Of a DNA stretch of 64,000 nt, positions 8,572-59,791 are shown in pieces (the first letter of the stretch is position 1; each line of letters opens with the position of its first letter). The translations under genes were made by a program, and so were the position numbers. The stretch is from positions 256,709 through 320,708 of the forward strand of contig JADJTL010000003.1 in NCBI GenBank assembly GCA_016711215.1. Direction: 5' to 3'. This DNA comes from Pseudomonadota bacterium. Its GTDB lineage: Bacteria; Myxococcota_A; Polyangia; GCA-2747355. The notes under the pieces were generated by a model, which worked only from the letters and a program-made list of their open reading frames with translations, was not told the DNA's origin and did not search any database.

Positions 8572-8714
8572 CGAGGCCAGAGTGTAGCGCACGACCGCGG
8601 CAGCGCCGACCGCGGGCCACGACTGGCGCGCGGTCGGCGCTTGGGCTATCAAGGGCACGGCATGTTGGCGCGGCTCGCCGCGCGGAGCGCCGTCACAGCG
8701 GCCAGCCGAGGACC

Positions 8715-10076: not shown

Positions 10077-10100
10077 GGCAGGCGACGCCGCGCGACCCGG

Positions 10101-21321: not shown

Positions 21322-21343
21322 GAAGCCTCACTCCCACAACCCG

Positions 21344-23296: not shown

Positions 23297-23359
23297 GCGC
23301 GCAAACTACTCGATCCCGTGCGCGCGCGCTACTGCGGTCGAGCCCGCGGGATCAGGCGG

Positions 23360-31200: not shown

Positions 31201-31315
31201 AGTGCAGCACCAGCGGCCCGGGGCCTTGCGCGCTCAGGACGATCTCGGTCAGCTCAGCGTCGGCGCGCTGGTCGATCGTCATCCGGACGTCGCCCTGCTC
31301 GATTACCTGGCTCAT
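28205..31315 (-). CDS. Alpha-glucan water dikinase (GWD)-like phosphotransferase, paralog 2, with N-terminal CBM45-like domain
   Basis: N-terminal LVLHWGLRLPGDGRWHAAPPECWPAG resembles starch-binding CBM45. Central EEWHQKLHNNTTPDDVAIAEAYLAF is near-identical to the plant GWD motif as I recall it. Phospho-His motif DLVSHVAVRARNAGLLFATCY. C-terminal nucleotide-binding YRSDANAEDLAGYAGAGLYDSV. 1036 aa. Confidence 0.8.
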   Translation of the reverse strand: MSQVIEQGDVRMTIDQRADAELTEIVLSAQGPGPLVLHWGLRLPGDGRWHAAPPECWPAGSVAVGEAAVQTPLAPRSEEGPLVLRLPAQGPWAALTFVLLLPDRGRWVHHHGGDFVVPLRSAGVVDGPSAPVACARLVEEIVAHELGRSSWTLMHRYQLCHALIEGCGADADALAYLFVWLRFSALRQLDWQRRYNTKPRELAHAQQRLGELLVQRFAGAPRARPLVRLLLGTVGAANEGQRIRDEILEIMHRHRIKEVAGHFLEEWHQKLHNNTTPDDVAIAEAYLAFLRSDGDLLRYWAELQRHGVTRQRLESYERPIRSAPDFVPGLKAGLAQDIEHFAGTLRALHEANDLAAAAAAARESCDPEDRQRLAWLLSLSRPSPADGGARGIDRATGAASPSPAAILVQVVEAITVLRRNLARRLAGGETVRALLYLDLALEDHLRLAVERWLDADVTLAELVVLVEHVLENLGLSSALPELELCRRHWRRISADGTFDADRARHARAVVERVARAVGGEVDAWYALLQPKAEQLGVALRVEAWVISLFSEEVVRGRPSFVIAALLRHLDPLLRAVAALGDWQVVSPGRGEGELRCVDTLRELQLDGQRGPLVVLSRSVGGDEEIPEQVTAVITPMPTDLVSHVAVRARNAGLLFATCYAPQKLSELEALQGRQVRLEVDARGDVVVAALEGATAAAATPRAPLVLPAVDLSGEDWVLPLARCGPDQVGAKARGLLRLAAVLPSWAIVPPAVAVPFGGLERALALPANAGRAEEYAERTRRADEGAIDVALLSRLRALVLELEAPAALAPALKSALAAVGVPLGDALATSWMQIKRVWASKWNERAYQARQHWQLAHRAVHLAVLIQPLVPADHAFVLHSVNPADGNARELYLELVPGLGETLVGNHPGRALAVVVDKARLGDADGGARIVAYPSKSEALSARGLIYRSDANAEDLAGYAGAGLYDSVTAEAPTARLLDYTEEPLLWDAARRLPLVRRIAEIGLSVERAFGTPQDIEGVISEGRLYVVQARPQVGL

Positions 31316-31377
31316 CGGCTCAACACTTCATCCTGCTCGAGGCCGGCGATTCTGCCCCGGCCCTCGTCATCTTGCGC

Positions 31378-31609: not shown

Positions 31610-33202
31610 GTGCGGGCGCACGCTCACAGCCCCAACACCACGTCGTGGATGATCCTGCGCCGGCTCGGCAGCGGCTACTTCACCGAGGACGCGCTGGGCG
31701 CAGAGCCTGGGCCGACTGGCGTGACGCGCCTGGTGCTGATCAAGAGCCTCCTGCCGCGACTGCACGACGCCCGCCCCTTCGTCGGCGCCTGGCTCGCGCG
31801 CGCGACCGCGGCAATCGCGCTGCGCCACGACGGCATCGCGCGCGTCTTCGCCGCCGAGCCGCAGGGCGGCGGTGCGCGGGTCGTCACCGAGTACGTCGGC
31901 GGCGAGACGTTGCGCCTGCTGGTCAGCGCTCTGGCCGCACGCGAGCTCAGCCTACCGCTGGGCAGCGCCTGTCGGATTGTCGCGCAGGCGGCCGAGTCGT
32001 TGGCCTACGCCCACGCCCTACCCGACAGCGCCGACGATCGGAGGTCGCTGCTGCACGGCGATCTCTCGCCGGAGAACGTCGTCGTGACCTATGCCGGTCA
32101 GACCAAGCTGATCGACTTCGGGCTCGGGCGAGCCGACCCGCTGCGGAAGCACACCCCACCCAGCCGCCTGGCCAGCCGCATCGCGCACCAGGCCCCCGAG
32201 CAACTGCAGCAGCGCACGGTCGATCGACGCGCCGACGTCTGGGGCCTTGGCGTGCTGCTCTACGAGCTCCTTGCCGGCCGGCTGCTCTTTCACGGTGCCA
32301 CGCCACAGGAGGTGCTGGAAGCGGTCATGGGGGCTCCGGTGCCACCACCGAGCCGCTACAACCCGGCCATCCCACCAGAGCTTGACGCGGTCGTGCTGGA
32401 CGCGCTGGAGCGCGACGTGCCGCGGCGCATCTCGTCAGCCGCGGCGCTGCGCGAGCGGCTCGAGCAGGTCCTCGAACAGAGCGAAGGGGCGCACCCGGCT
32501 GCGCTCGGCGGCTGGCTGCGCGGCGCGCTGCGCGACTGCTACGCAGAGCGCCAGAGCATCGAACGCGAGGCGCGCACCGAGGCGATCGAGGCCCTGCGGG
32601 CCCAAGGGCCACCACCCTGGGCGACGGACGCGCCGGTCCTCATCGGCGCGCACCCTCGCTCGGCCTGGGCACGGGCCCGCAGCCGCGCCTGGGTCACCTT
32701 CCGACGCCGTCCGATCTTGGTCTCGGCGCTGCTGCTCGTGCCCGGCGCGAGCGGCCTTCTTTCGTATCGCCTGGGCCGCCACCTCGGCGCTGGCGAACAC
32801 GTGCCGTGGCGCCTCTGGCCGCTGGTCGCGCTCCTGGTCGCGGGGGGGACGCTGCTGGTCGCTTGGCGTCTGGGCGCAAAGCGCTGGCGGACCTCGCCGG
32901 CACCGGTCGCGAAGGAGCCGCTCAGCAGCGCCGAGCGCGAAGCCGCAGCGTGGCGCAACGAGGCTCAGCACCGCCGCAAGCGCCTGACGGAGGCCGAGCG
33001 CGCGCTGAGCCGCGTCGACGGCCACCTGGCCGACGCCATGGACCAGCTCGTCGAGGCGGAAGAACGGGCGAGCCAGGCGGAGCGCCTCGAGCGAGCCCTC
33101 GGCGAGGCGCACGCCGAGCTGCGGCAGCTGCGTGACTTGGCCGAGCGCACTGGGGCCTCGCGCGACGCCGCCGCTACCGCGAAGGATCGCGCCAGTCGAT
33201 GA
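31610..33202 (+). CDS. Ser/Thr protein kinase-like protein with C-terminal TM helices and a coiled-coil tail
   Basis: Kinase fold with atypical catalytic loop LLHGDLSPENVVV (HGD, Lys replaced by Ser), DFG present (LIDFG), APE present. Two hydrophobic helices. Ala/Arg-rich coiled coil at the C-terminus. Start uncertain (GTG 31610 or ATG 31649). The long upstream ORF extension runs across the repeat region and was rejected. Confidence 0.7.
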   Translation: MRAHAHSPNTTSWMILRRLGSGYFTEDALGAEPGPTGVTRLVLIKSLLPRLHDARPFVGAWLARATAAIALRHDGIARVFAAEPQGGGARVVTEYVGGETLRLLVSALAARELSLPLGSACRIVAQAAESLAYAHALPDSADDRRSLLHGDLSPENVVVTYAGQTKLIDFGLGRADPLRKHTPPSRLASRIAHQAPEQLQQRTVDRRADVWGLGVLLYELLAGRLLFHGATPQEVLEAVMGAPVPPPSRYNPAIPPELDAVVLDALERDVPRRISSAAALRERLEQVLEQSEGAHPAALGGWLRGALRDCYAERQSIEREARTEAIEALRAQGPPPWATDAPVLIGAHPRSAWARARSRAWVTFRRRPILVSALLLVPGASGLLSYRLGRHLGAGEHVPWRLWPLVALLVAGGTLLVAWRLGAKRWRTSPAPVAKEPLSSAEREAAAWRNEAQHRRKRLTEAERALSRVDGHLADAMDQLVEAEERASQAERLERALGEAHAELRQLRDLAERTGASRDAAATAKDRASR

Positions 33203-35004
33203 GAAGGCACGCCTTCGGCGCGACCGTCAGCGCCGAAGGCACCCGCTTTCGCGTCTGGGCGCCGAGGGCGCGCAGGGTCGAGTTGATCCTCGAGGGTGGC
33301 GCGGCCGCCGGCACAGCCACCACGGTCCAGCATCGCCTCCAGCGCGCCGGCGACGGTCTCCACGAGGTCTTCGTGCCGCAGCTTGGCGCGGGGGCCCGCT
33401 ATCGCTACCGCCTCGACGACGACCGCGTCGCCCCCGACCCCGCGAGCCGCTACCAGCCCGAGGGCGTCCATGGACCGTCGGCGGTGGTCGACCCGCTGGC
33501 CTTCCGCTGGCACGACGCGGCGTGGTCGGGCCGGGCCTTGTCCGAGCTCGTCATCTACGAGCTGCATGTCGGCGCCTTCACGCCAGAGGGGACCTTCGCC
33601 GCCGCCAGCGCACGACTCGACGACTTGCAGGCGCTCGGCATCACCGCGGTCGAGCTGATGCCCGTGGCGGATTTTCCTGGGCGCTGGAGCTGGGGCTACG
33701 ATCAGGCGGCGCTCTGGGCTCCGGCGCAGGTCTACGGCCCGCCCGACGCGCTGCGGGCCTTCGTCGACCGAGCCCATGCGCTCGGCCTCTCCGTGATCCT
33801 CGACGTGATCCACAACCACGTCGGGCCCGATGGCGCCTATGTGGCCGCCTTCGGCCCCTTCCTCACCCGCCGACATCACACGCCGTGGGGAGCCGCGGTC
33901 AACCTCGATCAGCGCGGCAGCGCGACCGTTCGCGCCTTTCTGATCGAGAACGCGGAGCACTGGCTCGCCGAGTACCATATCGACGCCCTGCGCCTCGACG
34001 CCATCGACGCGCTCTACGACGGCAGCGCCACCCACTTCCTGACGGCGCTGAGCACGCGGGTGGGGAGCCTTTCCGGACAGCGGCGCTATCTCTTCGCCGA
34101 GGACGACCGCAATCTCAACCTCGTGCTGCAAGCGCCATCCGCCGGGGGCTACGGCCTCGACGGCGTCTGGACTGACGACTTCCACCACCTCTTGCGGCGT
34201 CTCCTGACCGGCGAGCAGCTCGGCGCGCCTTCTGACTTCCCGGCAACCACCGCAGCGCTGGCGAAGACGATCAACGACGGCTGGTGGTACCAAGGTCAGG
34301 TGCTGCCGAGCAGCGGCCTGCCGCGCGGCAGCGATCCGCGCGCCCTTTCGCCCCAGAGCCTGATCTACTTCCTGCAGAATCACGACCAGGTCGGCAATCG
34401 ACCCTTCGGCGAGCGCCTGCACCAGACGATCAGCCCCGCGCTGTTCCGTGCCGCCTCCGCCCTGCTGCTCTTTCTCCCGCAGACGCCGCTGCTCTTCATG
34501 GGTCAGGAGTGGGCGGCGAGCGCGCCCTTCCATTTCTTCACCGATCACAAGCCCGCGCTCGGGCGCCGGGTGCGTGAGGGACGCTGGCGCGAGGCCCGCG
34601 CGCGCTTCGCGATCGACGCCGGCACGACGCTTCCCGACCCGCAGGATCCCAGCAGCTTCGAGCGCAGCAAGCTCGCTTGGGCCGAGCGCGGACGAGCGCC
34701 GCACGACGGCACGCTCCAGCTCTACCGCAAGCTCCTTCGACTGCGCCGCGAGCTCAGCGGACGGGCGCAGGCCGAGAGCCCCTCCGAGGGCGCTCTGTTG
34801 GTGCGACGCGGCGCCTATACGCTCGCCGTAGCGCTGCGCTCGGACCTCGACCTGCCGCTGCCAAGCGCGGGTGTGGAGCGCCTCTCGACCGCTGGCCCTC
34901 CCGGGACTGGCGCGCCGGAGGCGCCGCTGACTCAAAGTGGGCACCTCCACTTCGCGGCGCCCGCCGCCGTGATCTTCGGACCGGCAGCGGGTCTTGGCGC
35001 CTGA
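33199..35004 (+). CDS. treZ: GH13 malto-oligosyltrehalose trehalohydrolase-like alpha-amylase-family enzyme
   Basis: N-terminal CBM48-like FRVWAPRARRVELIL. GH13 catalytic regions (GLSVILDVIHNHVGPDG; ALRLDAIDAL; YLFAEDDRNL; FLQNHDQVGNR). 601 aa. Symbol assigned on family resemblance only. Confidence 0.75.
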   Translation: MRRHAFGATVSAEGTRFRVWAPRARRVELILEGGAAAGTATTVQHRLQRAGDGLHEVFVPQLGAGARYRYRLDDDRVAPDPASRYQPEGVHGPSAVVDPLAFRWHDAAWSGRALSELVIYELHVGAFTPEGTFAAASARLDDLQALGITAVELMPVADFPGRWSWGYDQAALWAPAQVYGPPDALRAFVDRAHALGLSVILDVIHNHVGPDGAYVAAFGPFLTRRHHTPWGAAVNLDQRGSATVRAFLIENAEHWLAEYHIDALRLDAIDALYDGSATHFLTALSTRVGSLSGQRRYLFAEDDRNLNLVLQAPSAGGYGLDGVWTDDFHHLLRRLLTGEQLGAPSDFPATTAALAKTINDGWWYQGQVLPSSGLPRGSDPRALSPQSLIYFLQNHDQVGNRPFGERLHQTISPALFRAASALLLFLPQTPLLFMGQEWAASAPFHFFTDHKPALGRRVREGRWREARARFAIDAGTTLPDPQDPSSFERSKLAWAERGRAPHDGTLQLYRKLLRLRRELSGRAQAESPSEGALLVRRGAYTLAVALRSDLDLPLPSAGVERLSTAGPPGTGAPEAPLTQSGHLHFAAPAAVIFGPAAGLGA

Positions 35005-37779: not shown

Positions 37780-40083
37780 CTACTCCGCCTCAGACGCCTC
37801 AGACCTGGGCTCGGCCTCGGACGGGGCGCCGTCCTGCGCCGGAGCGAGCAGGCTGTCCGCCGGCGTCGCTTCGCGCGCGAAGAAGAGCGCACCCAGCGGC
37901 GGCAAGGTCAGCGAGAGCGACTGCTCCATGCCGTGGCAGGGCATCGGCTCACTGACCACACGCCCGCAGTTGCCGACATTCGTCCCGCCGAAGCTCTCAG
38001 CGTCGCTGTTGACCAGCTCGAGGTACTCGCCCGCGGCTGGCACCCCGATGCGGTAGTCCCTCCGCGGCACCGGCGTCAGGTTGAAGACGCAGATTATCTC
38101 GCCCCGCGGACCGCGGCGCAGGAAGGAGATCACCGATTGCTCGGAGTCGGTGCAGTCAATCCACTGAAAGCCGCGAGGCTCATGATCCCAAGCCCAGAGC
38201 GCATCGTGGCCGAGGTAGAGGTGACCGAGCTGCTGGACCAGCCGCTGAATACCACTATGGCGCGGCTCGGCGAGCAGCTGCCAGTCCAAGCTGGCATCGT
38301 GGCGCCATTCCGACCACTGCCCGAACTCGGCGCCCATGAAGAGCAGCTTCTTGCCCGGATGCGCATAGAGGTAGCTCAAGAGCACGCGCAGCCCGGCGGC
38401 CTTGCGCCAGTCGTCGCCCGGCATCTTCGAGAGCAGCGCGCGCTTTCCGTGCACGACCTCATCGTGCGAGAGCGGCAGGATGAAGTTCTCCGTCCAGGCG
38501 TAGAGCATGCTGAAGGTCAGGTTGTTGTGATGGTACTTGCGATGGATCGGATCCTTCGTGAAGTAGTGCAGCGTGTCGTGCATCCACCCCATGTTCCACT
38601 TGAAACCGAAGCCCAGGCCGCCCAGGTAGGTCGGCGCCGTGACGCCACCCCAGGCCGTAGACTCCTCGGCGATGGTCAGCACGCCAGGGAAGCTGCTGTA
38701 GACTTGCCGGTTGAGCTCCTGCAGTAGTGAGATGGCCTCGAGGTTCTCGCGCCCACCGTACTGGTTCGGGATCCACTCGCCATGCGGGCGGCTGTAGTCG
38801 CGGTAGATCATCGACGCGACGGCGTCGACGCGCAGGCCGTCGAAGTGGAACTGATCGAGCCAGTAGAGCGCGTTGGCCAGCAGGAAGGCGCGCACCTCGT
38901 GGCGCCCGTAGTTGAAGATCAGCGTGCCCCAATCGCGGTGCTCGCCCTCGCGGGGGTCGGCATGCTCGTAGAGCGCCGTGCCGTCGAACCAGCGCAGCGC
39001 GTAGTCGTCCTTGGGGAAGTGCGCGGGCACCCAATCGAGCAACACGCCAATACCGTGCTGGTGGCAGAGATCGATGAAGTAGCGCAGATCGTCGGGCCCA
39101 CCGTAGCGCGCCGTCGGCGCGAAGTAGCCCGTGGTCTGGTAGCCCCACGAGAGGTCGAAGGCATGCTCGGCGATCGGTAGCAGCTCGAGATGCGTGAAGC
39201 CATGGATCCGGCAGTGCTCGATCAGGCGCGGCGCGAGCTCACGGTAGGTCAGCCAGCCGTCCTCGCGCTCGGGCACGCGCATCCACGAGCCGAGATGCAC
39301 CTCATAGATCGCCATCGGCTTCTGCCGCGGGTCACCGACCGCACGAGCCTGAATCCACGCGTCATCCTGCCAGGCGAAGCTGCCGAGCCCCTGAACCACG
39401 GACGCGCTCTTGGGCCGCAGCTCCATCGCGAAGGCCATCGGGTCGGTCTTGAGCCGTAGGTTGCCGTCGCGCAGCTTGAGCTCGTACTTGTAGATCGCGC
39501 CGGCACCCACGCCCGGCAAGAAGAGCTCCCAGACCCCCGAGGCCCCCAACCGGCGCATCGGGTGGCGGCGCCCATCCCAGCCGTTGAAGGTCCCGACCAC
39601 GCTGACGCGCACGGCGTTGGGCGCCCAGACGGCGAAGGAGGTTCCAGCCACCCCATCGACCGCGCGCGGATGCGCGCCGAGCCGCTCATAGAGGCGGTAA
39701 TGGGTACCCTCACCGAAGAGGTGCAGGTCGAGCTCGCCGAGCGTCGGCGCGAAGCCATAGGGGTCTGCCAGGGGCGGCGCGCTGCCGTCGGCCAGCGACC
39801 ACTCGACCTCGTAGCTCAGCGGCAAGCTCGCGTCGGGCAGGAAGCGGGCAAAGAGCCCTCCGCTATGCACCTGCTGCATGGGCTGGGGATCGCTGCCGGC
39901 AACGTGCAGCTGCGCGCCAAGCGCCTCGGGAGCGAAGGCGCGCACGACCAGTCCCTGCCGCCCCTGCCAATGCAGCCGATGGACGCCAAGCAGCCCGTGC
40001 GGGTCGCTGATTTCGGCGCGGACGAGACGCTGCACCGCCTGTGGATCACCTTCCAATGAGTGCTGGACGCCTGTCATCTGCAT
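37780..40083 (-). CDS. glgB: 1,4-alpha-glucan branching enzyme
   Basis: 767 aa. N-terminal CBM48 segment plus GH13 catalytic core ([17 protein letters not shown]; [15 protein letters not shown]; [12 protein letters not shown]; FMGAEFGQ). Typical GlgB architecture. Confidence 0.9.
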
Positions 40084-40169
40084 GAACCCGCCTTGTCGTC
40101 GCTAGAGGCGAGGAGGTCATCGCCCCCCACCCGAGGTCAGCGCGCCCAACGAGTGCGCCGCTCCGCCAC

Positions 40170-47059: not shown

Positions 47060-48202
47060 TCAGTAGCCGGACTGGGCGCAGATCCCGCCCGCGGCGGTTG
47101 GCATTACGCCCATCGGAACACCAGTATCCACCGCGCTGATGGTTGCGGAATCGGTGGAGTTGACGCGGATCTCTGCGATCTCGAAGGTCTCCCCCCACGA
47201 CAACGAATCGCCGTCCTCGACCATCCGCAGGACGATCGCGCGCGCCGTCGGCAGCTTGGCCCCGGCGAGATCGATCAGCTCCTCGCCTCCGGACCCCATG
47301 AGCTTGGAGGCTACGAACTGCCAGCCCTGCGGATCGCTGCTCGAGACGGGCGAGGTCGGCAGGTCGCCCGGGGTGGCCCCCGAAGCCACCGCCACCTGGT
47401 ACTCGCTGGCGTAGGTCCTCCCCGAGGCGCTGCGCGCGTCCTTCCAGACGACCGCGATCGATGAGAGCGGGTAGGCCTTGTCCAGCGCGAGGTGGATCTG
47501 CACCGGTATGTCGCTGAGCGCATTTGCGCCCCACCCACTCCAGTCCGTCTCCGATTCATAACGCGCATAGGTCGCCGGATTGCCGTCGACCATCGCCTCG
47601 GCGCTGCCGCTCGTCGACGCCAGCGCCTGGGCAGGGGCGTGCTCGGAGACCACCTTCACCACGCGCACCGGAACGCTGGAACCGCTGGCCGCGCCAAGTT
47701 CACCAGCCGTGCGTAGGACGGTGGCCTCGGCAAGCGCAAGGCCACGCTGGGCTGCACAGCCGACCTGGCGGGTGATGGTCTGTCGGGCGGGCGGACTCTG
47801 GCGGTGCTCCCCGTTTACATAGACCGAAATGGCGTTCGGCCCCTGGGCCAGACCGACCGCGACACAGAAGCGACCCGTCTGCGCGTTCGAGACGGTGACC
47901 CAGGACCCGAGCGGCGTGGTGCCGACGATCGTCTGCCCGGCGAGCGCCCGACCGGTGATGGCGACGTCCTCGGCGCAGGTCACGGCCTGCGCCACCGGAT
48001 CGAGCAAGGGTGCGCTGAGGACAGCGCTCGTATCGGGGGTGTTCGGGGAGCCAAGGACGCCGGCATCGACCTCGAAGATGCTGGGCGCGTGGCCCTCGCC
48101 GAGCCCGCAACCACCCCAAGAGCCGACGACGACGAGCGCGACCAGTGGCAAACCCACCAATCGTGCCCAAGCCTGCCCTCCGCGCGTTGCCACCTGCCAC
48201 AT
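47060..48202 (-). CDS. Secreted lipoprotein with a C-terminal discoidin (F5/8 type C)-like domain
   Basis: Start chosen at MWQVATRGGQAWARLVGLPLVALVVVGSWGGCG (signal peptide plus Cys). C-terminal beta-sandwich-like segment (...AVVWKDARSASGRTYASEYQVAV...ETFEIAEIRV). The ORF continues upstream through in-frame (MAGAAAR)n repeats to 48793. Confidence 0.55.
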   Translation of the reverse strand: MWQVATRGGQAWARLVGLPLVALVVVGSWGGCGLGEGHAPSIFEVDAGVLGSPNTPDTSAVLSAPLLDPVAQAVTCAEDVAITGRALAGQTIVGTTPLGSWVTVSNAQTGRFCVAVGLAQGPNAISVYVNGEHRQSPPARQTITRQVGCAAQRGLALAEATVLRTAGELGAASGSSVPVRVVKVVSEHAPAQALASTSGSAEAMVDGNPATYARYESETDWSGWGANALSDIPVQIHLALDKAYPLSSIAVVWKDARSASGRTYASEYQVAVASGATPGDLPTSPVSSSDPQGWQFVASKLMGSGGEELIDLAGAKLPTARAIVLRMVEDGDSLSWGETFEIAEIRVNSTDSATISAVDTGVPMGVMPTAAGGICAQSGY

Positions 48203-48206
48203 CGCT

Positions 48207-48300
48207 GTTGCTCCGCCCATTCGCGCTGCTGCTCCGGCCATTCGCGCTGCTGCTCCGGCCATTCGCGCTGCTGCTCCGGCCATTCGCGCTTGCGCCTGCC
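48207..48300. repeat. 21-bp tandem repeat (CATTCGCGCTGCTGCTCCGGC) x about 4. Lies immediately upstream of, and in frame with, the discoidin lipoprotein start. On the minus strand it encodes (MAGAAAR)n
   Basis: Direct reading. Each unit contains an in-frame ATG on the minus strand. Confidence 0.9.
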
Positions 48301-48616
48301 ACGCTCTGATCCAGGCGGCTCCAAGGGCCGTCGGCCGGCTTGAATGCAAAGGGCGGACCGCTGGCGCGCCAAGCCCTTCAATCGAGTTATTCAAGTAGCT
48401 TGAAGCCTTCGGCGGGACTGGAATGCAGGGCAAGGCGAGGGCCCAGCCACGGTCGCCTGGCCCCGACGCGCTCGCGACCTGGCCACTGCGCTTGCCGTCG
48501 AGCGCTGCGCGACGGCAGGGGCGCGGGCCCGCCGACCACTGCGCCAAGGCCCCGCGCGGACGCTGGCCGACCCTGAGTCGGCACGCTATAGTCGCCCCGC
48601 ATTGGAGGAGCGCCTG

Positions 48617-49199: not shown

Positions 49200-49703
49200 T
49201 TAATCGACCAACGTCGCCGTCTCGATCACGACGTCTTTCTGCGGGCAATCCTGGCTGAAGGGGCCGCGGCTGCCCGTGGGCACCGCCTTGATCTTATCGA
49301 CGACCTCCATCCCCGCGCTGACGCGCCCGACCACGGCGTAGCCGTACTTCTCCGGCGTCTTGCCCTTGTGGTCGAGGAAGGCGTTGTCTGCCACGTTGAT
49401 GAAGAACTGCGACGTGGCGCTATCGACCTCGGAGGTGCGCGCCATCGCCACCGTGCCATTCAGGTTCTTCAGACCATTCGCGGCCTCGTTGGCGATCGGG
49501 GCGCGCGTCGGCCGCTTGCGCAGCTGCGCATCGTAGCCGCCGCCCTGAATCATGAAGCCGTCGATCACCCGATGAAAGATCGTGCCGTCGTAGTGCTTGG
49601 CCTGCACGTAGTCGACCATGTTCTTGGCCGAAACGGGCGCCTTCTCGTCATCGAGCTCGAGCATGATCTCGCCGAGGCTCGTGACCAACTTGACCTTGCG
49701 CAT
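49200..49703 (-). CDS. ppiB: Cyclophilin-type peptidyl-prolyl cis-trans isomerase
   Basis: HYDGTIFHRVIDGFMIQGGG...SQFFINV...FLDHK. Canonical cyclophilin motifs. Start at MRKVKLV. Confidence 0.85.
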   Translation of the reverse strand: MRKVKLVTSLGEIMLELDDEKAPVSAKNMVDYVQAKHYDGTIFHRVIDGFMIQGGGYDAQLRKRPTRAPIANEAANGLKNLNGTVAMARTSEVDSATSQFFINVADNAFLDHKGKTPEKYGYAVVGRVSAGMEVVDKIKAVPTGSRGPFSQDCPQKDVVIETATLVD

Positions 49704-49857
49704 GCGTCCTCCCGGAAAAAGCGTGTGCGGCAGCATTCCAGAGCTGAGGGTCGGACGCAAGCGGGAGCCGCTGCGCGACTGGCGGGCTGCGGCGACTGGC
49801 GGGCTGCCGCCGCCCCTCCAGCGGCCGGGAGCACGCGCATTGCTTCACGCGGGGGCC

Positions 49858-50796
49858 TCAGATCACGGCGGCGACGGAGCGCCCCTCATGAACGCTGCGA
49901 ATCACCCCGGCGAGCAGGCCCGCTACCGAAACCACGGTGATCTTGTCGATCTGCTTCTCCTGGGGCAGCGGGATCGTATCGCTGGTGATCAGCTCCATGA
50001 CCTTGGAGCGATTCAAGCGCTCGACGCCGGAGCCCGAGAGCACTGGGTGCGTCACCGCCGCGCGCACCGTGCGGGCACCGCTGGTAACGAGCAAATCGGC
50101 CGCCTCGGTGATCGTCGCGCCCGTATCGATGATGTCGTCGACGAGGACGCAGTCGCGTCCCTTGACCTCGCCGACCAGCCGCATCGACTTCATCTTCGAG
50201 GGCGCGCCGCGGCGGCGGTCGATCATCGCGATCGAGCCGGCCATGCCCTTGGCGATCTCGCCGGCGCGTTCGACGCCACCCGCGTCCGGCGCCACGACCA
50301 CCGGCTCCTCGAGCTTCAGCGCGCAGAGGTGGTCGATCAAGATGCGCGCGCTGCGCTGCAGGTGGTCGACGGGCACATCGAAGAAGCCCGGAATCTGCCG
50401 CGCATGCAGGTCGATGGTGATCACGCGATCGACGCCGACGGCGGCCAGCAGCGTGGCGACGACCTTGGCCGAGATCGGCCCGCGCTTGCCATCGAGGTGA
50501 TCCTGTCGGCTATAGCCGAAATACGGGATCACGGCGTGAACCCGCGCGGCCGAAGCGCGTCTACACGCGTCGATCAGCAGGAGCAGCTCCATGATGTGAT
50601 CGTTGCCCGGATAGCAGGTCGACTGCACCACGAAGACATCGTGCGCCCGCACGCTCTCGTTGAGCGCGATGCTGACCTCGCCGTCGGAGAAGCGCTTGAC
50701 ATGGGCGTCACCGAGGGGAACGCCCAGCTCCCGGGCGATCCGATGCGCCAAGGCGGGATTGGAGCTGCCGGAGAAGACCTTGGGTGCTAACGACAT
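49858..50796 (-). CDS. prs: Ribose-phosphate pyrophosphokinase
   Basis: KVFSGSSNPALAHRIARELGVPLGDAHVKRFSDGEV...PYFGYSRQD...VLVDDIIDTGATI. Start at ATG 50796. The upstream ORF extension to 51621 was rejected. Confidence 0.9.
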   Translation of the reverse strand: MSLAPKVFSGSSNPALAHRIARELGVPLGDAHVKRFSDGEVSIALNESVRAHDVFVVQSTCYPGNDHIMELLLLIDACRRASAARVHAVIPYFGYSRQDHLDGKRGPISAKVVATLLAAVGVDRVITIDLHARQIPGFFDVPVDHLQRSARILIDHLCALKLEEPVVVAPDAGGVERAGEIAKGMAGSIAMIDRRRGAPSKMKSMRLVGEVKGRDCVLVDDIIDTGATITEAADLLVTSGARTVRAAVTHPVLSGSGVERLNRSKVMELITSDTIPLPQEKQIDKITVVSVAGLLAGVIRSVHEGRSVAAVI

Positions 50797-51078
50797 CGAA
50801 GCTCCTTGCGGATCGCGGGCGATGATCAAACCGCACACCGGACGCTGACCGCTCCCCGGCGGCGCGGCATTGTTGCCGGGCCACGGGTCGCGACGCAAGG
50901 ACCTCGCGCGCGGGGTGTCGCGCGCGGGGCGCTCGCGAGCGCCCCGCGCGGGCCGGCAGCCGCAGGGGCGCGTTGACGCGCTCGCGGCGCTGGCAGCAAC
51001 ATCGGCCGGTAATCCCGATCGGGCCGTCCCGGCGCGCTCGCCCCCTCCGCGAGCTCGCCGATCGGGGGAGGGGAAGTC

Positions 51079-51780
51079 GTGCCAACTCGACGCGTGCGCC
51101 AGCTCAAGCTGCCCGTCACCGGACCCCAAAGCCTGGAGGCGCTGCTGACCCGGGCCGGGGCCCTGCAGGGGGCGACGATCGGCGCGGTAGCCGCTCGTTG
51201 CGGGGTCTCGCTCGAGCGCGGTAGGGCCGGCCATAAGGGCCGCGTCGGCGAGCTGATCGAGCGCGCCCTCGGCGCCAGCGCGCAAAGCCTCGACCTGCCC
51301 GACTTCCCGCAGCTCGGCGTCGAGCTCAAGACGGTACCGCTCGATGCGCTGGGGCGGGTGCGCGAGTCGACCTTCGTCTGCACGATCGACCTGCTGCGGG
51401 CTGCCGACGAAGTATGGGAGGGCTCGCGCTTGTGGAGCAAGCTGCGCTGCGTCCTCTGGGTACCGGTCGAGCCGGCGGGCAGCGCGCCGCTGGCGCTGCG
51501 GCGCCTTGGACGCGCGCTGCTGTGGCGGCCGAGCGCCGCGGAGGAGGCCCTGCTGAGGGCCGATTGGACGGCGCTGATCGGGCTGATCGCGGTCGGCGGC
51601 GTCGAGGAGCTGAGCGCCCACCTCGGCGAGGCCCTACAGGTGCGGCCCAAGGCGGCCGACGGACGGGCGCGGACGAGCGCCCGCGGTCCTGATGGCGAGG
51701 CGCTCGCGGCGATGCCGCGCGCCTTCTACCTGCGTGCGCGCTTCACGGAAGCGCTGCTCTGGTCGCTGACGGCCCGCTGA
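51079..51780 (+). CDS. mutH: MutH-family GATC-specific endonuclease (DNA mismatch repair protein MutH homolog)
   Basis: Near full-length collinear similarity to E. coli MutH as I recall it. Active-site region DLPDFPQLGVELKTVPLDALGRVRESTFVCT. Then LRCVLWVPVE...LALRRLGRALLWRPSAAEEALLRADW...GEALQVRPKAADGRA...MPRAFYLRARFTEALL. 233 aa. Confidence 0.75.
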   Translation: MPTRRVRQLKLPVTGPQSLEALLTRAGALQGATIGAVAARCGVSLERGRAGHKGRVGELIERALGASAQSLDLPDFPQLGVELKTVPLDALGRVRESTFVCTIDLLRAADEVWEGSRLWSKLRCVLWVPVEPAGSAPLALRRLGRALLWRPSAAEEALLRADWTALIGLIAVGGVEELSAHLGEALQVRPKAADGRARTSARGPDGEALAAMPRAFYLRARFTEALLWSLTAR

Positions 51781-51898
51781 CCGCTGGCTGACGCTGCGCG
51801 ATCCGCGGCGGGGCAGTTTTCACGCTGCGAGCCCCACGAAAGCTGTGCTAGGTCAAACCTCCCCCACGAACGGTTCAAACCGCAGCGAGCAGCGAGAG

Positions 51899-52858
51899 AT
51901 GGAGGCAGGGATGGGCAACGACTGGAACGCACTGCTGGTCGAAGATCACGAGCGCACAGAGCGCGTATTGGCGGCGATGGAGAAGGCGTTCGCCGCGCCG
52001 CAAGCGCCCGCGCCGGCGCTGGTCGAGCAGCTGCGCAGGTATCTATGCCAATACGTCGAGCAATGCCACAACCGCAAGGAGGAGGAGCACCTCTTCCCCC
52101 GGCTCGAGGCGCGGGGGCTACCGCGCGCCGGCGGCCCGCTGGCGGTGATGCTGGCCGAGCACGAGCAGGTACGCGAGCACCTGGCGCGGCTCGACCCCCT
52201 GGCCCGCGCCTACAGCGCCGGCGACAGCGGTCAGCTCGCGCCGCTGCGCGTCGTCTTCACCGACTACGCCGCGCTGTGCAAGAGCCACTTCTGGAAGGAG
52301 AACGACATCCTCTATCCGATGGCGCGGCGGCTGCTCGATCCAAGCGACGCCGAGGCTGTCGTCACCGGGATTGAGCAGCTCGAGCGGGCGCTCGCGCCGG
52401 CGAGCCGAGCGTCCTACTACGCGCTGGCTGACGAGATCATCGCCGCGAGCGCGCTGCGCGACCTCTCCTTCAACCTCGATCCAGAGGTGATGGCGGCGCT
52501 GCTCAACACGCTGCCGCTGGAGCTCTCGTTCGTCGACCACGAGGATACTGTGCGCTACTTTAGCCACGAGCTGGCACCCAAGATCTTCCCGCGGACCCGC
52601 GGTGCGATCGGCACCAAGGTCCAAGACTGCCACCCCGCCCACAGTGTGGATCTGGTCGAACGCATTCTCGCCGATTTCAAGGCCGGGCGCCGCGAGGTCG
52701 CAGCGTTCTGGATCGACCTCAACGGACGCAAGATCCACATTCGCTACTGGCCGGTCCGCGACCCGCAGGGGCGCTATCTCGGCTGCCTCGAAACGGTGCA
52801 GGACGTCACCGGCATCCAGCAGCTCGTCGGCCAGCACCGCCTCCTGGACGAGCAGTAG
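51899..52858 (+). CDS. Hemerythrin-like metal-binding domain protein fused to a DUF438 domain
   Basis: N-terminal HHE-type helical bundle (LLVEDHERTERVL...CHNRKEEEHLFPRLEA...MLAEHEQVREHL...DILYPMARR). C-terminal LSFVDHEDTVRYFSHE...CHPAHSVD typical of DUF438. Start at ATG 51899 behind a GAGAGA Shine-Dalgarno-like sequence. Confidence 0.65.
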   Translation: MEAGMGNDWNALLVEDHERTERVLAAMEKAFAAPQAPAPALVEQLRRYLCQYVEQCHNRKEEEHLFPRLEARGLPRAGGPLAVMLAEHEQVREHLARLDPLARAYSAGDSGQLAPLRVVFTDYAALCKSHFWKENDILYPMARRLLDPSDAEAVVTGIEQLERALAPASRASYYALADEIIAASALRDLSFNLDPEVMAALLNTLPLELSFVDHEDTVRYFSHELAPKIFPRTRGAIGTKVQDCHPAHSVDLVERILADFKAGRREVAAFWIDLNGRKIHIRYWPVRDPQGRYLGCLETVQDVTGIQQLVGQHRLLDEQ

Positions 52859-53085
52859 GCCGCGCGGGCCCGTCCCTCCGCCCCGGGCGAAGCGTGGTCA
52901 GGGCGTCTCGATGCCTTCGGCCATGACCTCGGCGCCGTCGCCGCGGCTCGCCTCGAACTTTCGCGAATAAACTTGTCGGCTTGCGCTGATCTCTCGCCCC
53001 GCGGCGATCGCGCCGATCTTTCTCTTTTACCACTAATGTAAGCGTCCGTACTGTTGCTTTACCGATTATAACCATGGAGGCCACG

Positions 53086-56000
53086 ATGTCCCACCCTCTA
53101 CGCTTCGGCGCTTCGCTCTCGGGTCGTGTGGCGGGCATCGCTCGGATCGTCGCGCTCCTGGGGCTCGGCTCGCTCTTCGGCTGCGAGGCGCTCGAGAACG
53201 ACGCCGCCCTGCAGCCGCCGGTGGTGAGCGTGACGGCCCAGACGGCGATGAACAGCGACAACGCGATGAACGCGATGAACGCGATGAACGCGATGAACGC
53301 GATGAACGCGATGAACGCGATGAACGCGATGAACAGCATCAACCTCGGCACGACCGGCGTGATGAGCAGCGCGGTGGCCGACCTCGGCAAGCTGAGCTTC
53401 GGGCAGGTCAACCTGCTCTGCCCGCCGACGCGCTTTCCCTACACCCTCCCCAGCGCGCTGCCCGACGGCTCCCGCGACGTGAACGTGGTGCTGCCGCGCT
53501 GGATCGTGATGAAGCAGCAGTTCGAGCGCGTCTACGAGGCCTGTTGTGCGACGCCACCCTGCAGCAACAGCTGTCCGGCGCTCAAGGTCGCGATCGGCGA
53601 GGACTTCGACGGCAACGGCTCCGCCGAGACGACGGTCAACTACGAGGTCTTCAGCGGCATCGGGCTGGCCTGCGCCGACAAGGCCTACCGGCCCTTCCTG
53701 CTGCACCCGATCAATGGCCCCGAGGTGCAGGCGTTGAACGCCAACGGGACCATCCCCACCTTCAAGACCTACTTCCGCTACCTCTGCATGAAGACCTACG
53801 ACGTCGCCCAGGGCAAAGAGGTCTACGTCTGCGGCAAAGGACGCCTCGCGGACGGCATCAGCGGCTACGCGGTCAAGAAGGACACGCTCTCGCCCCGACC
53901 GATCTACGCCAAGGCGCTGACCTGGGGTGAGAACACCTGGGGCGCGCACTTCCAGTTCGTCAAGGGCCACATCGGGTCGATCGTCGAGCGCCAGCAGCAC
54001 AACATCAGCCCGGCGGGCTACGCCCTGGATGACGCCTGGGGGCTCAATCCGCTCGACAAGCACAGCGACAACGTGACGAGCAAGGAGCCCGACTACTTGG
54101 CGGCGGTGGCGCTGAAGACGGCGACGAGCCGCTCCGGCGTGGCCGTCAGCCCCTACAACTGGGCCAACGCGACGGGCGCCAAGGCCTTCAACACGGGCGA
54201 GCTCAACCAATGCGAGGCGGGCTACGCCGCCACGCCCGATCTAGCGTCGAAGGGCACAGTGGAGAACGGCCTGCTGCTCAACCTCTCGGTGGCGCAGTGG
54301 TATCAGGACAACTGCCGCTGGAGTCAGGACTGGGGCCTCCCCGTGCTGGCCGCCCAGAACGTCGGCAACGGCTGCAGCGTCTTCCCGACCGGCACCGCCG
54401 CCAACCAGGCGCTGATGGGGATCAACCTCGGCGACAGCACGCCGCGCCGCTGCCCGAGCTTCATCACCTGCGAGCCCGGCCAGGCCTGCTGCATCGGAAA
54501 GTTCGGCACCGGTAGCAGCGCCACCTGCACCGTCAAGACGGACGGCCGGGTCTGGTGCTGGGGCCAAGACTACGGCGCAACGCCGAGCGAGCCGATCCGC
54601 ACCGCTTCGGGGACGCTCGAGGGCGCTCTGGAGGTGAGCATGGGCTCACTGCACGCCTGTGCGCGGCGGTCGGACGGCACCGTCTGGTGCTGGGGGCGCA
54701 ACACCTACGGTCAGCTCGGCGACGGCACCACCTCCTCCTCCGTGACGGCGGTGCAGGTCAGCGGGCTGACCGCCGTGGAGGAACTCACGGTTGGCGGTAG
54801 CCACGGCTGCGCACGCCAGCGCGACGGCGCCGTGCGCTGCTGGGGCTTCAACGCCCGCGGACAGCTCGGCGACGGCACCACCACCAACCGCAGCGCGCCC
54901 GTCCCGGTCGGCGGGGCTCTGACCGAGGTCGCCCAGCTTGCGGCCGCCGCATACCATACCTGCGCGCGGCTCGCGACCGGCGCTGTGCGCTGCTGGGGCT
55001 ACAATTCCTATGGCCAACTCGGTGACGGCACCACCACCGACCGCGGTGTACCGGTTGCGGTGGCAGGGCTGAGCGGCGTCGCCGATATCGCCGGCGGAGA
55101 GCACCATAGCTGCGCGCGGCTGGCGACGGGCACGCTGCGCTGCTGGGGCTACAACTACTACGGCCAGCTCGGCGACGGCTCGACAACCAACCGAAAAACA
55201 CCGGTGACGGTAAGCGGTCTGAGCGGCGTCACGGAGGTCTCGCTCGGTGGGTCCTTTGGCTGTGCACGCCTGACCGACGGCATGCTGCGCTGCTGGGGCC
55301 AGAACACCTACGGCCAGCTCGGCGACGGCTCGGCGTTTACCAGCAAGACGCCCCTACTCGCCAGCGTCGTCCGCTGCGACGCACAGGACGGCCTCTGCGG
55401 CAAGAATGAAGACCAGGCCACCAGCCCAGCAGACTGCAGGGCGACGAGCTGCGGTGACGGGAAGTGCGGCGGTGAGGAAGCACCGCTCACCTGTCCGGCC
55501 GATTGCGCCGCGGGCCTTGAGCTGCCACGCAGGCTCGGCTGGTACCACAGCTGCGCGCGGGTCAACGACGGCACGCTGCGCTGCTGGGGAAATAACGCCC
55601 GCGGTCAGCTCGGCGACGGCTCTGTGCTCGCCCGCCACATCGCGGGTCAGGTCAGCAGCCTCGCCAACGTGAGCCAGTTCGCCGTGGGCGACGACCACGG
55701 CTGCGCAGTCCTAGCCGGCGGTACCGTGCACTGTTGGGGCTACAATTACGATGGCCAGCTCGGCGACGGCTCGACCACCAACCGCACGACGCCCGTGGCC
55801 ATCAGCGGCCTGAGCGGGGTCGCCGACGTCGCGCTCGGCGCGTCCCATAGCTGCGCGCGCCTGACCGACGGCACCGTGCGCTGCTGGGGCAGAAACATCC
55901 AGGGGCAGCTCGGCGACGGATCCACCACGGACCGTCGGACACCCGTGGCCGTTTCCGGTCTGAGCGGGGTCGCCGAGCTCGTGCTCGGAGGGTCGCATGG

Positions 56001-56810
56001 CTGCGCACGGCTGACCGACGGCACCGTGCGCTGCTGGGGAAGCAATTACATGGGCCAGCTCGGCGACGGCACGACCGTCAATGGACTGACCCCGTCGCCG
56101 TCAGTGGCCTCAGCGGCGTGGCGACCCTCGCGCTCGGGCAAACCCACACGTGCGCGCGGCTGACCAACGGCACCGTGCGCTGCTGGGGCTACAATGCCTC
56201 CGGCCGACTCGGCGACGGATCGACCACCAACAGCTCGACGCCGGTCACCGTCCTCGGTCTGAGCAACGCCAGCACGCTCGCTCTCGGCAATGCCCACAGC
56301 TGCGCGCGACTGACCAACGGCACCCTGCGCTGTTGGGGCTACAATGCCTCCGGCCAGCTTGGTGATGGCACGACAACCTCGCGCGAAACGCCGGTCGCGG
56401 TCGCCCAACTGAGTCGCGTAACAGCCGTCGCCGCCGGCGTCTACCACACCTGCGCGCAGCTGAGCACGGGCCTGCTCCGCTGCTGGGGGCAGGGCGCGAA
56501 TGGCCAGCTCGGGACCGCCGCCTTCGGAACGATGGCGCTCACCCCCGCGGCACCCTCGATGTGTGGCGATGGCGTCTGCGAGTTCGCGGAGAAGCTCTTT
56601 GGCAGCTGCGCCGCCGACTGCACGCCGCTGCTCGGTGACTGCGTCTGCGACCCCCTCCTGGAGGATCTCAGCAACAGCCCGGCCGACTGCGACCCCAACC
56701 GTAGCTGTCAGCCGCGGCTGCAATGCAACGACGGCCACTGCGACACCGCCGCCGGAGAGACCTGCAAGAGCTGCTCGGGCGCCAACACCGACTGCGGTCC
56801 CTGCGCCTGA
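53086..56810 (+). CDS. Large secreted RCC1-repeat protein with N-terminal (Asn-Ala-Met)8 repeat, an uncharacterised 400-aa domain, more than 14 RCC1 beta-propeller blades and myxo-type Cys-rich repeats. The reading frame is interrupted by a 1-nt frameshift near 56090
   Basis: Signal peptide with Cys. (GCGATGAAC)n encodes NAMNAM... Repeated blades such as GTVWCWGRNTYGQLGDGTT...PV.VSGLSGV. Cys-rich repeats (CGDGKCGGEEAPLTCPADC; CGDGVCEFAEKLFGSCAADC). Frame A ends at 56163. The RCC1 blades continue without a break in the +2 frame from about 56090 to 56810. Confidence 0.7.
53261..53336. repeat. 9-bp tandem repeat (AACGCGATG) x about 8, encoding (NAM)n
   Basis: Direct reading. Confidence 0.9.
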
Positions 56811-56824
56811 GGAAGCGCGGGCCG

Positions 56825-57744
56825 CTAGGTCGGCCAGGCCGGCGAACGGAGCTGCTTGCGGAGGATGGCGCGGTTGCCCTCCGCGTTGAAGCTCAGGCGG
56901 TCGACCGAGAGCTGGGCGAGCAGGATCCCGCGCCCATGCGCGGCCAGCAGGTTGTCGGGATCGGTCGGGTCCGGCAGCCCCTGCCAGTTGAAACCCGAGC
57001 CCTCGTCCGCGACCTCGATCTCGAGGCTATCGACGAGGCGCCGAATCGTCAGCCGGGCGTGCCGGGCCGCGTAAGGTAGCTCCGCCGCGCGGGCAGCCAG
57101 GACCTGAGGCAAGGTGCCCAGCTCCAGGGCTCGCGCCTTCTCGGCGAAGGTCAGGCCAAGATTGCCGTGCTCGACGGCGTTGAGCACCACCTCGCGCAGC
57201 GCCAGGTTCAGCTCGACGAGCTGCGGCTGCGGCAAGTCGGCGGCGCAGGTGCTGAGCACCACATCGACGAAGGCCGGGATCGCCTCGAGGTCATTGCCGA
57301 GCTCGAAGATCCAGCTGTGCTCGAGCAGGCGCGCCGCCCGCGGGAGACGCACGCGCTCGCGCCGCGCCAGCTCGCGCGCGGCCTCCATCCGCAGCAGGGC
57401 CGCGCTCAGGTCCTCAAGCCGCACCGGCTTCTTGATGAAGTCGATCACCCCAGCGCGCAGCGCCACGATCACGAGCTGCTCGCTGCCGTGGCCGGTAATC
57501 ACGGTGATCGGCGTGGCCGGCGAGAGCTCGCGAATCGCCACCGCCAACGAAAGGCCATCCCCTCGCGGCATCCGCACGTCAGTGATCACCATGTCGGGCT
57601 GCGCGCTGCGAAAAAGCGCCAACCCTCCTCAGCGTCGCCGCCGGTGACGACCTCGTAGCCCTCGTCGCTGAGCAGCGCGCCGAGCTCCTGCCGCACGAGC
57701 GGCTCGTCATCGACCAGGAGGATCTTCGCTCGGGCCATCGTCAT
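56825..57744 (-). CDS. Response regulator (REC) fused to a GHKL/anti-sigma-regulatory-factor-like ATPase domain. The REC domain is split by a 1-nt frameshift near 57612
   Basis: The ORF at 57586..57792 encodes the REC N-terminus (MARAKILLVDDEPLVRQELGALLSDEGYEVVTGGDAEEG). The ORF at 56825..57622 continues the REC (ALFRSAQPDMVITDVRMPRGDGL...ITVITGHG...FIKKPV) and the C-terminal ATPase-like domain (LNAVEHGN...DEGSGF...GRGILLA). The frames join if one T or G is added in the GGTTGGCGC run. Confidence 0.6.
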
Positions 57745-59635
57745 CGCCACCCGGCGCCCGCGGCAGTGTGATGTTGAAGCAGGCGCCAGCACCCGGCGCT
57801 GAATCGACCGTCAGTGTGCCACCGAAGCCGCTGACGAGGCTATAGCTGATGGACAAGCCCAAGCCCGTGCCCTTGCCCGGCTCCTTGGTGGTGAAGAAGG
57901 GCTGGAACACGCGCTCGCTGACGGCGGCCGCCATCCCGGGGCCGTTGTCGCGCACCTGGAGGCAGACCGCCGCGCGGCCGTCCTCGCCCTGGCACTCATG
58001 CGCGGCGACGCGCACGCGGCCGCCGCCCGGCCGCGGCGACACGCTGTTGCCACAGGCGTCGACGGCGTTGATCAGCAGGTTCAGCAGCACCTGTTCGAGC
58101 TGGCTCGCATCGGCGAGCACGGGCGGCAGCGCGGGCGGCAGGGTCACCTCCAGCGCGATACCGGCGCCCTCGAAGAGCGCGCGGAGCATCTCGCTGACGT
58201 GCTGCACGGGCAACGCGAGCGACACCTGCTGGAGGCTGCGCTCGCGGCGGCGGCCGAAGCTGCGCAGTTGGTCGATGATGCGCCCGGCGCGCTCGACCTG
58301 ACCGACGACATGCTCCAGGCGTTCGCGCCAGAACGCGCGCTGATCGTCGGGCAGCGTGTCGAGGCGGCGCCGCATCCGCGCCGCCAGCAGGCCGATGTTG
58401 TTCAGCGGCTGGTTGAGCTCGTGGGCCACCCCCGTCGCCATCTCGCCCAGGCTGGCCATCTTCGCGCTTTGAATCAGCTGCAGCTCGTTGAGCTGCAGCT
58501 CGGCCGCCAGGCGCTTGGCCTCCGTCACGTCGACGAAGGTCCAGAGCTCCCCCGCGGCCACCGCCCCATCGAGAATGGCGCTGCGGCTGATCACCGCCAC
58601 GTGCTGGCGGCCGTGCTTGTCGACGAGGAGCTCCTCGTTGCCGCTGGTTTCGATCAGCGGGCCGAGCTGGACCTCCTGCTGCGGCGGCCGCCCGAGCTGC
58701 GCGCGCAGCTCGCCGAGGGTCATGCAGCCCACCAGCTCCTCGGCGGCCCAGCCGAGCAGGCGCTCGGCGGCGCGATTGCAAATGCGGATCACCCCCTCGG
58801 CATCCGTGGCGACGATCGCCAGCGCATCCGAAGCCTCGATCAGGTTGTTGCGGAAGGCGAGCAAGCGCTCCGCAGCGAGCCGCGCCCGCACCGCCTGATC
58901 CTCGGCCCGCCGGCGACGCTCGACGTCACGCGCGAGGGCGCCCGTCAGTTGGCCGACCAAGCGGCGTAGCGGCCGATGAAGCAGGCCGTCGGCGCCCCAG
59001 AGCATCAGCCAGAAGGTGATCGCCAGCCCGAGGCCGAGCACGCCAGCGCTGACCGTCATGTACTCGAGCACGCCCTCGTCCTCGGGGCGATGCCCAACGA
59101 TGACCAGCACCCACCGGTCGGCGGCGAGCGGCGCGATCAGCCACACGCCGCTCAGCGCGCCCAGCTCGCGCGCGATCGCCGTCCGCGTGCCACGGCGGGG
59201 CGCGGCGCCCCAGAGGCGCGTCAGCGCAGCGGCGATGCCAGGATCGGTCGCATAGACCACACGCCCGTCGGCGTTGAGCAGCGCCATCGCCTCGCCGCTC
59301 AGCCGGGCTGCCTCGGCGACGGTGGCAGCGGGCGCGCGGTCCGGCGTGGCAGCTTGCATTCGCTGACAGATCGCCACCAGCAGCTCGCCGCGCTGCGCCA
59401 GGAACCTGCGGGTCGCGATCACCGAGTCGGCGACGTCAAAGGCCATCAGGCCGAGGCCGAGCAGCGCATTGAGGCCGAGCGCCAGCGCCGCGAAGCGGCG
59501 AAAGATGCGGCGCGTGCCATGCTGCGTCGAGCGCTCGACCCGCCCCCGTGGGGCCGAGGCGCCAGCGGACGGCGACTCGGCCGCAGCAGGCTTCTCGGGA
59601 CGCGATGCGTCAGCGGGGAGTTGAGGTTGCGTCAT
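57707..59635 (-). CDS. Membrane sensor histidine kinase with periplasmic sensor region, PAS-like domain, HisKA and HATPase_c
   Basis: Two TM segments. H-box VAHELNQPLNNIGLL. N/G1/G2 boxes (LLNLLINAVDA; DNGPGM; GTGLGLSISY). Located upstream of the frameshifted response regulator on the same strand. Confidence 0.8.
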   Translation of the reverse strand: MTQPQLPADASRPEKPAAAESPSAGASAPRGRVERSTQHGTRRIFRRFAALALGLNALLGLGLMAFDVADSVIATRRFLAQRGELLVAICQRMQAATPDRAPAATVAEAARLSGEAMALLNADGRVVYATDPGIAAALTRLWGAAPRRGTRTAIARELGALSGVWLIAPLAADRWVLVIVGHRPEDEGVLEYMTVSAGVLGLGLAITFWLMLWGADGLLHRPLRRLVGQLTGALARDVERRRRAEDQAVRARLAAERLLAFRNNLIEASDALAIVATDAEGVIRICNRAAERLLGWAAEELVGCMTLGELRAQLGRPPQQEVQLGPLIETSGNEELLVDKHGRQHVAVISRSAILDGAVAAGELWTFVDVTEAKRLAAELQLNELQLIQSAKMASLGEMATGVAHELNQPLNNIGLLAARMRRRLDTLPDDQRAFWRERLEHVVGQVERAGRIIDQLRSFGRRRERSLQQVSLALPVQHVSEMLRALFEGAGIALEVTLPPALPPVLADASQLEQVLLNLLINAVDACGNSVSPRPGGGRVRVAAHECQGEDGRAAVCLQVRDNGPGMAAAVSERVFQPFFTTKEPGKGTGLGLSISYSLVSGFGGTLTVDSAPGAGACFNITLPRAPGGDDDGPSEDPPGR

Positions 59636-59791
59636 CGCGGAGGCATCGAGCGGCCATCCTAGCAGCGCGAGAATACGGCCATGCTCGGCAGCATGCCTGA
59701 CGGGAATGCGCTATACCAGCGCACCGGGCTGGCATCACGCTTGCCACCGCGGTAGGTTCCGCGGCCTGGCCCCTCGTCGCCGGGAGGACCT

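Follow-up and report, generated by a model that had tools for sequence, protein, structure and literature searches.

The window analysed here, a stretch of 64 kb with a GC content of 70%, carries on its forward strand, from 51079 to 51780, an open reading frame with a GTG start and a TGA stop that codes for a MutH-like protein of 233 aa. The exact protein and its relatives are already labelled MutH by automatic NCBI annotation, with the NCBI entry (P0001) being shorter, at 223 aa, and starting 10 codons 3' of the GTG at 51079, thereby leaving out positions 51079-51108. We prefer the longer version because a Shine-Dalgarno-like GGAGG can be read on the same strand at 51067-51071, 7 nt before the GTG, and because this GTG is also used by the syntenic relative L001; the deposited start is probably wrong. 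A minus-strand ORF that overlaps mutH (49858-51621) was discarded as a high-GC artefact, being an extension upstream of prs.

The gene is divergent from prs itself, coding for ribose-phosphate pyrophosphokinase (49858-50808, minus strand), and the 270 bp between the two (50809-51078) contain four GATC sites and no sigma-70 consensus promoter. Scans for promoters and terminators, tRNAs and Rfam families, both near mutH and over the whole window, gave no matches. A cyclophilin-type peptidyl-prolyl isomerase gene lies at 49200-49760 (minus strand), and a domain search identified a gene combining hemerythrin and PAS_10 domains at 51845-52858. Farther along, on the minus strand, come a gene coding for a response regulator fused to a HATPase_c_2 domain of anti-sigma/switch-kinase-like type (56825-57628) and a PAS-HisKA histidine kinase gene (57707-59710), both of which flank mutH in all six syntenic lineages. 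The original prediction had described most of this neighbourhood correctly, with a divergent prs, a hemerythrin gene and neither mutS nor mutL nearby, but the DUF438 domain that it assigned to the hemerythrin gene was not detected, PAS_10 being found instead.

Between the hemerythrin and response regulator genes, the window also contains an RCC1-repeat gene (53074-56163, plus strand, 1029 aa), in which ten copies of a 9-bp tandem repeat, GCGATGAAC (53245-53334), encode an (AMN)n tract near the N-terminus of the protein. As the whole gene is missing at the matching position in L001, it is an insertion specific to this lineage, with a tract prone to slippage. Conversely, L001 is the longer of the two just upstream of the cyclophilin gene, where about 6 kb are added between collinear blocks (1298-7449 in L001 against 48022-48581 in the window).

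That the gene encodes a clear MutH homologue, as originally proposed, is borne out by sequence, profiles, predicted fold, and catalytic and recognition residues. The Pfam MutH profile PF02976 is matched over its full length (1-103) with 93.3 bits for a cutoff of 23 (E=1e-26), and the best NCBIfam matches are the two MutH models NF003458 (1.2e-71) and TIGR02248 (5.7e-59), well ahead of the Sau3AI model (2e-14). Both MutH equivalog cutoffs are narrowly missed, by 2.6 bits for NF003458 (240.4 against 243) and by 31 bits for TIGR02248 (198.9 against 229.9), as expected of a clade outside the seed taxa; homology to MutH stands, while functional equivalence is left uncertified by these models. A phmmer search of the PDB recovered E. 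coli MutH (1azo, E=1.4e-54) and H. influenzae MutH (2aoq, 1.3e-49). The end-to-end alignment with E. coli MutH of the original prediction is in fact gapless, pairing residues 13-227 with E. coli 8-222 at 48% pairwise identity over 212 columns. An AF2 model built from a 35-sequence alignment (pLDDT 90.8, pTM 0.87) gave, in a Foldseek search of the PDB, top matches that are all MutH (five chains, TM 0.82-0.96, rmsd 1.5-2.5 Å; TM 0.88-0.96 for 2azo, 2aoq and 2aor), with Sau3AI far behind at a TM of only 0.67. The window protein therefore has in common with the MutH of E. coli and H. influenzae (1azo, 2azo, 2aoq, 2aor) its length, its single domain, its gapless collinearity and its fold, and is a genuine and intact MutH homologue with a single PD-(D/E)XK domain.

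The residues on which MutH activity depends are equally well preserved. Residue numbers in the window protein are those of E. coli plus five, and conservation was counted over 68 sequences of the window's own MutH clade and 13 gammaproteobacterial sequences. The D...E.K block quoted in the original prediction, DLPDFPQLGVELKTVP (residues 72-87; 51292-51339, plus strand), indeed holds D75, E82 and K84, equivalent to E. coli D70, E77 and K79, all three present by alignment and invariant in 68/68 clade members; the same is true of E61 and K121 (E. coli E56 and K116). More broadly, E. coli K48, E56, D70, E77, K79, E91, F94, K116, R184, P185, K186 and Y212 are all conserved, including the DNA contacts K48 and F94 (K53 and F99 here), and only the position of F94 varies within the clade (F, Y, H or W), the other residues of this list being invariant in its 68 members. 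The GATC loop R184-P185-K186 corresponds to R189-P190-K191 (51643-51651, plus strand), which is invariant in the whole clade (68/68) and in all 13 gammaproteobacterial sequences. Y217 (51727-51729, plus strand) aligns with E. coli Tyr212, the sensor of adenine N6-methylation. The roles of the GATC-contacting residues and of the Tyr212 sensor are those assigned in published MutH work (refs 6 and 23 in PMC3424549), and the conservation of these residues leads us to predict both GATC specificity and sensitivity to methylation.

Homology to Sau3AI (4pxg; NF040973) raises the question of whether the protein might rather be a solitary restriction or defence endonuclease cutting at GATC, similar to Sau3AI or DpnII, or the remnant of a restriction-modification system, one of the options left open by the original prediction. 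Sau3AI does share with it a homologous N-terminal PD-(D/E)XK domain, GATC specificity and allosteric activation, and the window protein gives weak matches to the Sau3AI model (53 bits, over positions 30-215 of 475 only) and to the PADLOC REase_II model (20.7 bits). However, Sau3AI is built from two MutH-like domains (about 490 aa), cuts both strands and is accompanied by a methyltransferase, whereas the window protein is a single domain of 233 aa and no methyltransferase lies beside mutH in any of about 95 MutH-bearing loci. Sau3AI also ignores adenine methylation and has a Ser at the methyl-sensor position ('RAFSLK' against 'RAFYLR'), where the window protein, like MutH, has a Tyr. The surroundings tell against such a system as well: the gene lies in a housekeeping syntenic neighbourhood with which it co-diverges, and no PADLOC matches were obtained in the four adjacent genes scanned. 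Nor is GATC depleted in the window, which contains 508 sites (observed/expected 1.04) at a median spacing of 85 bp, with a largest gap of 1325 bp that is the sole one exceeding 1 kb, a density that is ample for GATC-directed repair. On the strength of the single domain, the missing linked methyltransferase, the lack of defence neighbours and a PADLOC echo of 20.7 bits only, we rejected a restriction or defence role, which we consider highly improbable.

Concerning the host, the original prediction of a myxobacterium-like genome proved correct. Genes for Ser/Thr kinases, for sigma-54 activators (enhancer-binding proteins) and for PilZ and DUF4388 proteins abound in the window, which also encodes the RCC1-repeat protein, and the closest species-representative genome, JADJDT01, a MAG from Danish activated sludge whose MutH is 83% identical, is collinear with the window from 46.7 to 64 kb at about 80% nucleotide identity. 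In the supplement of its source paper, this genome is assigned to p__Myxococcota; c__Polyangia; o__GCA-2747355 by GTDB and to UASB-TL25 by SILVA. Remoter MutH relatives are entered at NCBI under 'Myxococcales bacterium' and 'Deltaproteobacteria bacterium'.

Moreover, the gene arrangement is shared well beyond this pair. A block consisting of the cyclophilin gene, a Ser/Thr kinase gene, mutH, the response regulator/HATPase_c_2 gene and the PAS histidine kinase gene is kept on five other contigs (L023, L025, L027, L028 and L031, drawn from NCBI, JGI and Logan), whose MutH proteins are 52-61% identical to that of the window. The window and L001 have prs where other members of the clade carry the Ser/Thr kinase, and both show an insertion of the hemerythrin-PAS_10 gene after mutH, that of the RCC1 gene being found in the window only. 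Over the six syntenic loci, identity to the window in MutH and in the response regulator/HATPase protein amounts to 83/89, 61/64, 57/58, 57/58, 57/59 and 52/52%, respectively; MutH identity thus falls in step with that of its neighbour, as co-inheritance predicts. With a dN/dS of 0.21 relative to L001, mutH is under purifying selection, and it has been inherited vertically in an uncultured branch of the Myxococcota that is related to Polyangia and comprises the order GCA-2747355 and its relatives.

These data bear directly on whether the gene might have been recently transferred from a gammaproteobacterium, or might even be a contaminant introduced by binning or assembly. The textbook distribution of MutH would favour such an origin, since a 2012 survey describes the protein as gammaproteobacterial (PMC3424549) and a 2021 review, citing Putnam 2016, restricts methyl-directed repair to a few gammaproteobacteria (PMC8744996). 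In the library that we searched in full text, no paper ties MutH to Myxococcota or Deltaproteobacteria beyond the statements made in these two. However, the composition of mutH (74% GC, with a GC3 of 0.88 against 0.87-0.90 in adjacent genes) bears no signal of import, the same locus is found in a MAG obtained independently, with a nucleotide identity of about 80%, the same block recurs on the five other contigs, and identity to the best match from gammaproteobacteria reaches only about 52%. In neighbour-joining (NJ) trees, finally, the clade of the syntenic anchors is monophyletic to the exclusion of all gammaproteobacterial anchors in 85/100 bootstraps. We therefore rejected a recent transfer or a contaminant, a reading to which we give hardly any credence.

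An older event is a different matter. When the NJ tree is rooted with Sau3AI, the gammaproteobacteria are paraphyletic: the enteric/Alteromonas group branches first, the window's clade is nested within gammaproteobacterial diversity, and the MutH proteins of Chromatiales and Piscirickettsiaceae fall nearer the high-GC clades. Indeed, the closest labelled gammaproteobacterial relatives of the window protein are such non-enteric sequences (Chromatiales L015, Piscirickettsiaceae L014 and the groundwater gammaproteobacterium L020), which are nearer the high-GC environmental clades than the enteric/Alteromonas group is. At no more than 52% identity they nevertheless remain apart from the window's clade, which the same 85/100 bootstraps separate from them and whose gene block is specific to Myxococcota. 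Putnam reportedly extended methyl-directed repair in 2016 to other gammaproteobacteria only (Nitrosococcus, Methylophaga and Legionella), explaining its presence there by horizontal transfer. The topology fits an old transfer between phyla, although the tree is an NJ one with a long outgroup branch and does not fix the direction. Of the original suggestion that the gene had been acquired horizontally, what can be retained is therefore an ancient transfer; a recent one is contradicted by composition, by synteny and by co-divergence across a deep clade.

A scan of metagenomes added 80 more MutH loci (L040-L119), about 55 of which have a GC content of at least 60%, and revealed two further large high-GC clades (60-73%; 55 and 38 tips) whose gene contexts are unlike the syntenic block of Myxococcota. 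The diversity of MutH beyond the classic enteric/Vibrio/Alteromonas group is therefore large. On a marine TARA contig (L030, 64% GC; 6281-10708), a MutH homologue (P0119) follows dnaE on the same strand at a distance of 49 bp, a placement that would be replication-linked.

In E. coli, MutH remains latent as long as ATP-bound MutL has not docked on its helix 147-167; docking frees a loop (62-69, including Lys66 and Glu68) otherwise held by His112 and His115 (bioRxiv 10.64898/2026.04.21.719898). By this assignment (bioRxiv 10.64898/2026.04.21.719898), the MutL-binding helix corresponds to residues 152-172 of the window protein (51532-51594, plus strand). Its buried core is kept (L159, D162, W163, L166 and I170, equivalent to E. 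coli L154, D157, W158, L161 and I165), so that the window protein has in common with E. coli and H. influenzae MutH not only the catalytic residues, the GATC loop, K48, F94 and Y212, but also the core of this helix. It differs from them, apart from its origin in Myxococcota, by changed latch residues and by the loss of the acidic surface of the helix. Where gammaproteobacterial sequences have the near-invariant acidic residues E159, E160 and D/E163 (E. coli numbering), the window protein has Thr, Ala and Gly, the last of these being found in 67/68 clade members. In the latch, His112 is replaced by Arg throughout the clade (68/68) and His115 by Arg in 63 of its 68 members, the window protein having a Ser; Pro67 is Asp in 65/68 and Gln69 is Pro in 68/68, while Lys66 and Glu68 are both Leu in the window protein. 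The clade is also set apart from E. coli MutH by a signature Trp at the position of A223. The activation latch thus probably differs in detail from that of E. coli, and an Arg-Asp pair may stand in place of the E. coli contact between His and Glu68, a suggestion read from the alignment.

Such differences could mean that the protein is a MutH-derived GATC nickase repurposed to act independently of MutL, under the control of another partner and beside an endonuclease-active MutL. Its role would then be sought in the control of recombination, in the processing of foreign or unmethylated DNA, or in a back-up for strand discrimination. This would account for the clade-wide replacement of the E. coli latch (His112/His115-Glu68, Lys66) and of the acidic helix face, and would agree with scores just below the equivalog cutoffs. 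However, positions 112 and 115 also vary in the gammaproteobacterial MutH sequences that we compared (N, H, W or L), so the latch changes alone are no argument against control by MutL, and the DW motif at the core of the helix is invariant. Genomic context can be read in the same direction, given the persistent tight adjacency of mutH to the response regulator/HATPase_c_2 gene and the PAS histidine kinase gene, which in L025 goes as far as mutH beginning 7 bp after the response regulator gene on the same strand. In most lineages, though, mutH is convergent with the response regulator gene, and not co-oriented with it. Finally, no linkage to Dam, MutL or MutS genes was seen at any locus examined, but this says little, as the mutH gene of E. 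coli is likewise unlinked to dam, mutL and mutS. On balance, we regard a repurposed nickase as unlikely, though deserving of attention, and favour a MutH whose activity would depend on MutL as in E. coli.

The search for the partners of MutH covered several scales. No mutS, mutL or DNA methyltransferase gene was found anywhere in the 64-kb window, and tblastn with E. coli Dam gave no match either in the window or at any MutH locus. Across 1.36 Mb of collected loci, no Dam was found apart from loci chosen for Dam itself, and tblastn with MutL and MutS over 119 loci was equally without matches. A Dam search of 1.84 billion representatives yielded high-GC-like candidates that we examined, none of them in an assembly with a MutH contig, a result that is not to be taken as evidence of absence. 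The contexts of these candidates are a prophage-like island (L032), a mobile island of actinobacterial type (L033-L038) and a flagellated organism (L039). The KEGG tables in the supplement of Singleton et al. contain no entries for K06223, K03573 and K03572. Of tangential relevance, m6A at GATC has been described in a wastewater MAG of Myxococcota that belongs to another class (PMC12772301).

Taken together, a functional MutH-family GATC nickase that is native to this lineage of Myxococcota is what we predict with high confidence. Somewhat less firmly, with a probability of about 65%, we propose that it acts as in E. coli, in a Dam-directed repair pathway in which it is activated by MutL. By homology, the protein would bind GATC and sense N6-methyladenine through Y217, and would use D75, E82, K84, E61 and K121 to nick the unmethylated strand. 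It would be a latent nickase, switched on by ATP-bound MutL once MutS has found a mismatch, and at a hemimethylated GATC the cut would fall on the transiently unmethylated daughter strand. Such an E. coli-like role would in turn imply a GATC N6-adenine methyltransferase encoded elsewhere in the genome. Accordingly, among the explanations considered in the original prediction, Dam-type methylation in the lineage is the most likely implication of the presence of MutH.

Cultured Myxococcota are generally assumed to rely on the endonuclease of MutL. A more far-reaching proposal, which we put forward tentatively and rate somewhat below an even chance, is that this branch of the Myxococcota, possibly along with the two further high-GC clades, runs complete methyl-directed repair, with its own GATC methyltransferase, a MutL endonuclease that has been lost or subordinated, and a MutH with an Arg/Asp latch. 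If this were true, strand discrimination by Dam and MutH would be no late speciality of gammaproteobacteria, but either an older system or one transplanted across phyla long ago.

What is new here is the phyletic pattern, along with activation residues that take a form particular to this clade; taken by itself, the protein is an unremarkable MutH, and the kind of system is a known one. In this clade, nature provides an independent test of how methyl-directed repair is put together, in terms of both the choice of methyltransferase and the fate of the MutL endonuclease, and its MutH represents a naturally occurring variation on the recently described allosteric latch from MutL to MutH. It also predicts GATC m6A epigenomes in abundant myxobacteria of wastewater and soil.

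Two further gene groups in the window are worth recording. Two tandem minus-strand genes (24523-27975 and 28205-31327) resemble plant-type alpha-glucan water dikinase, with a GWD1 phosphohistidine domain and PPDK_N, and adjoin glgB- and isoamylase-like genes (33136-35004 and 37780-40101), an association that suggests glucan phosphorylation in a myxobacterium. At 19235-23305, also on the minus strand, an operon-like arrangement of genes for arginine decarboxylase, agmatine deiminase (PAD_porph) and N-carbamoylputrescine amidase (CN_hydrolase) corresponds to the agmatine route to putrescine.
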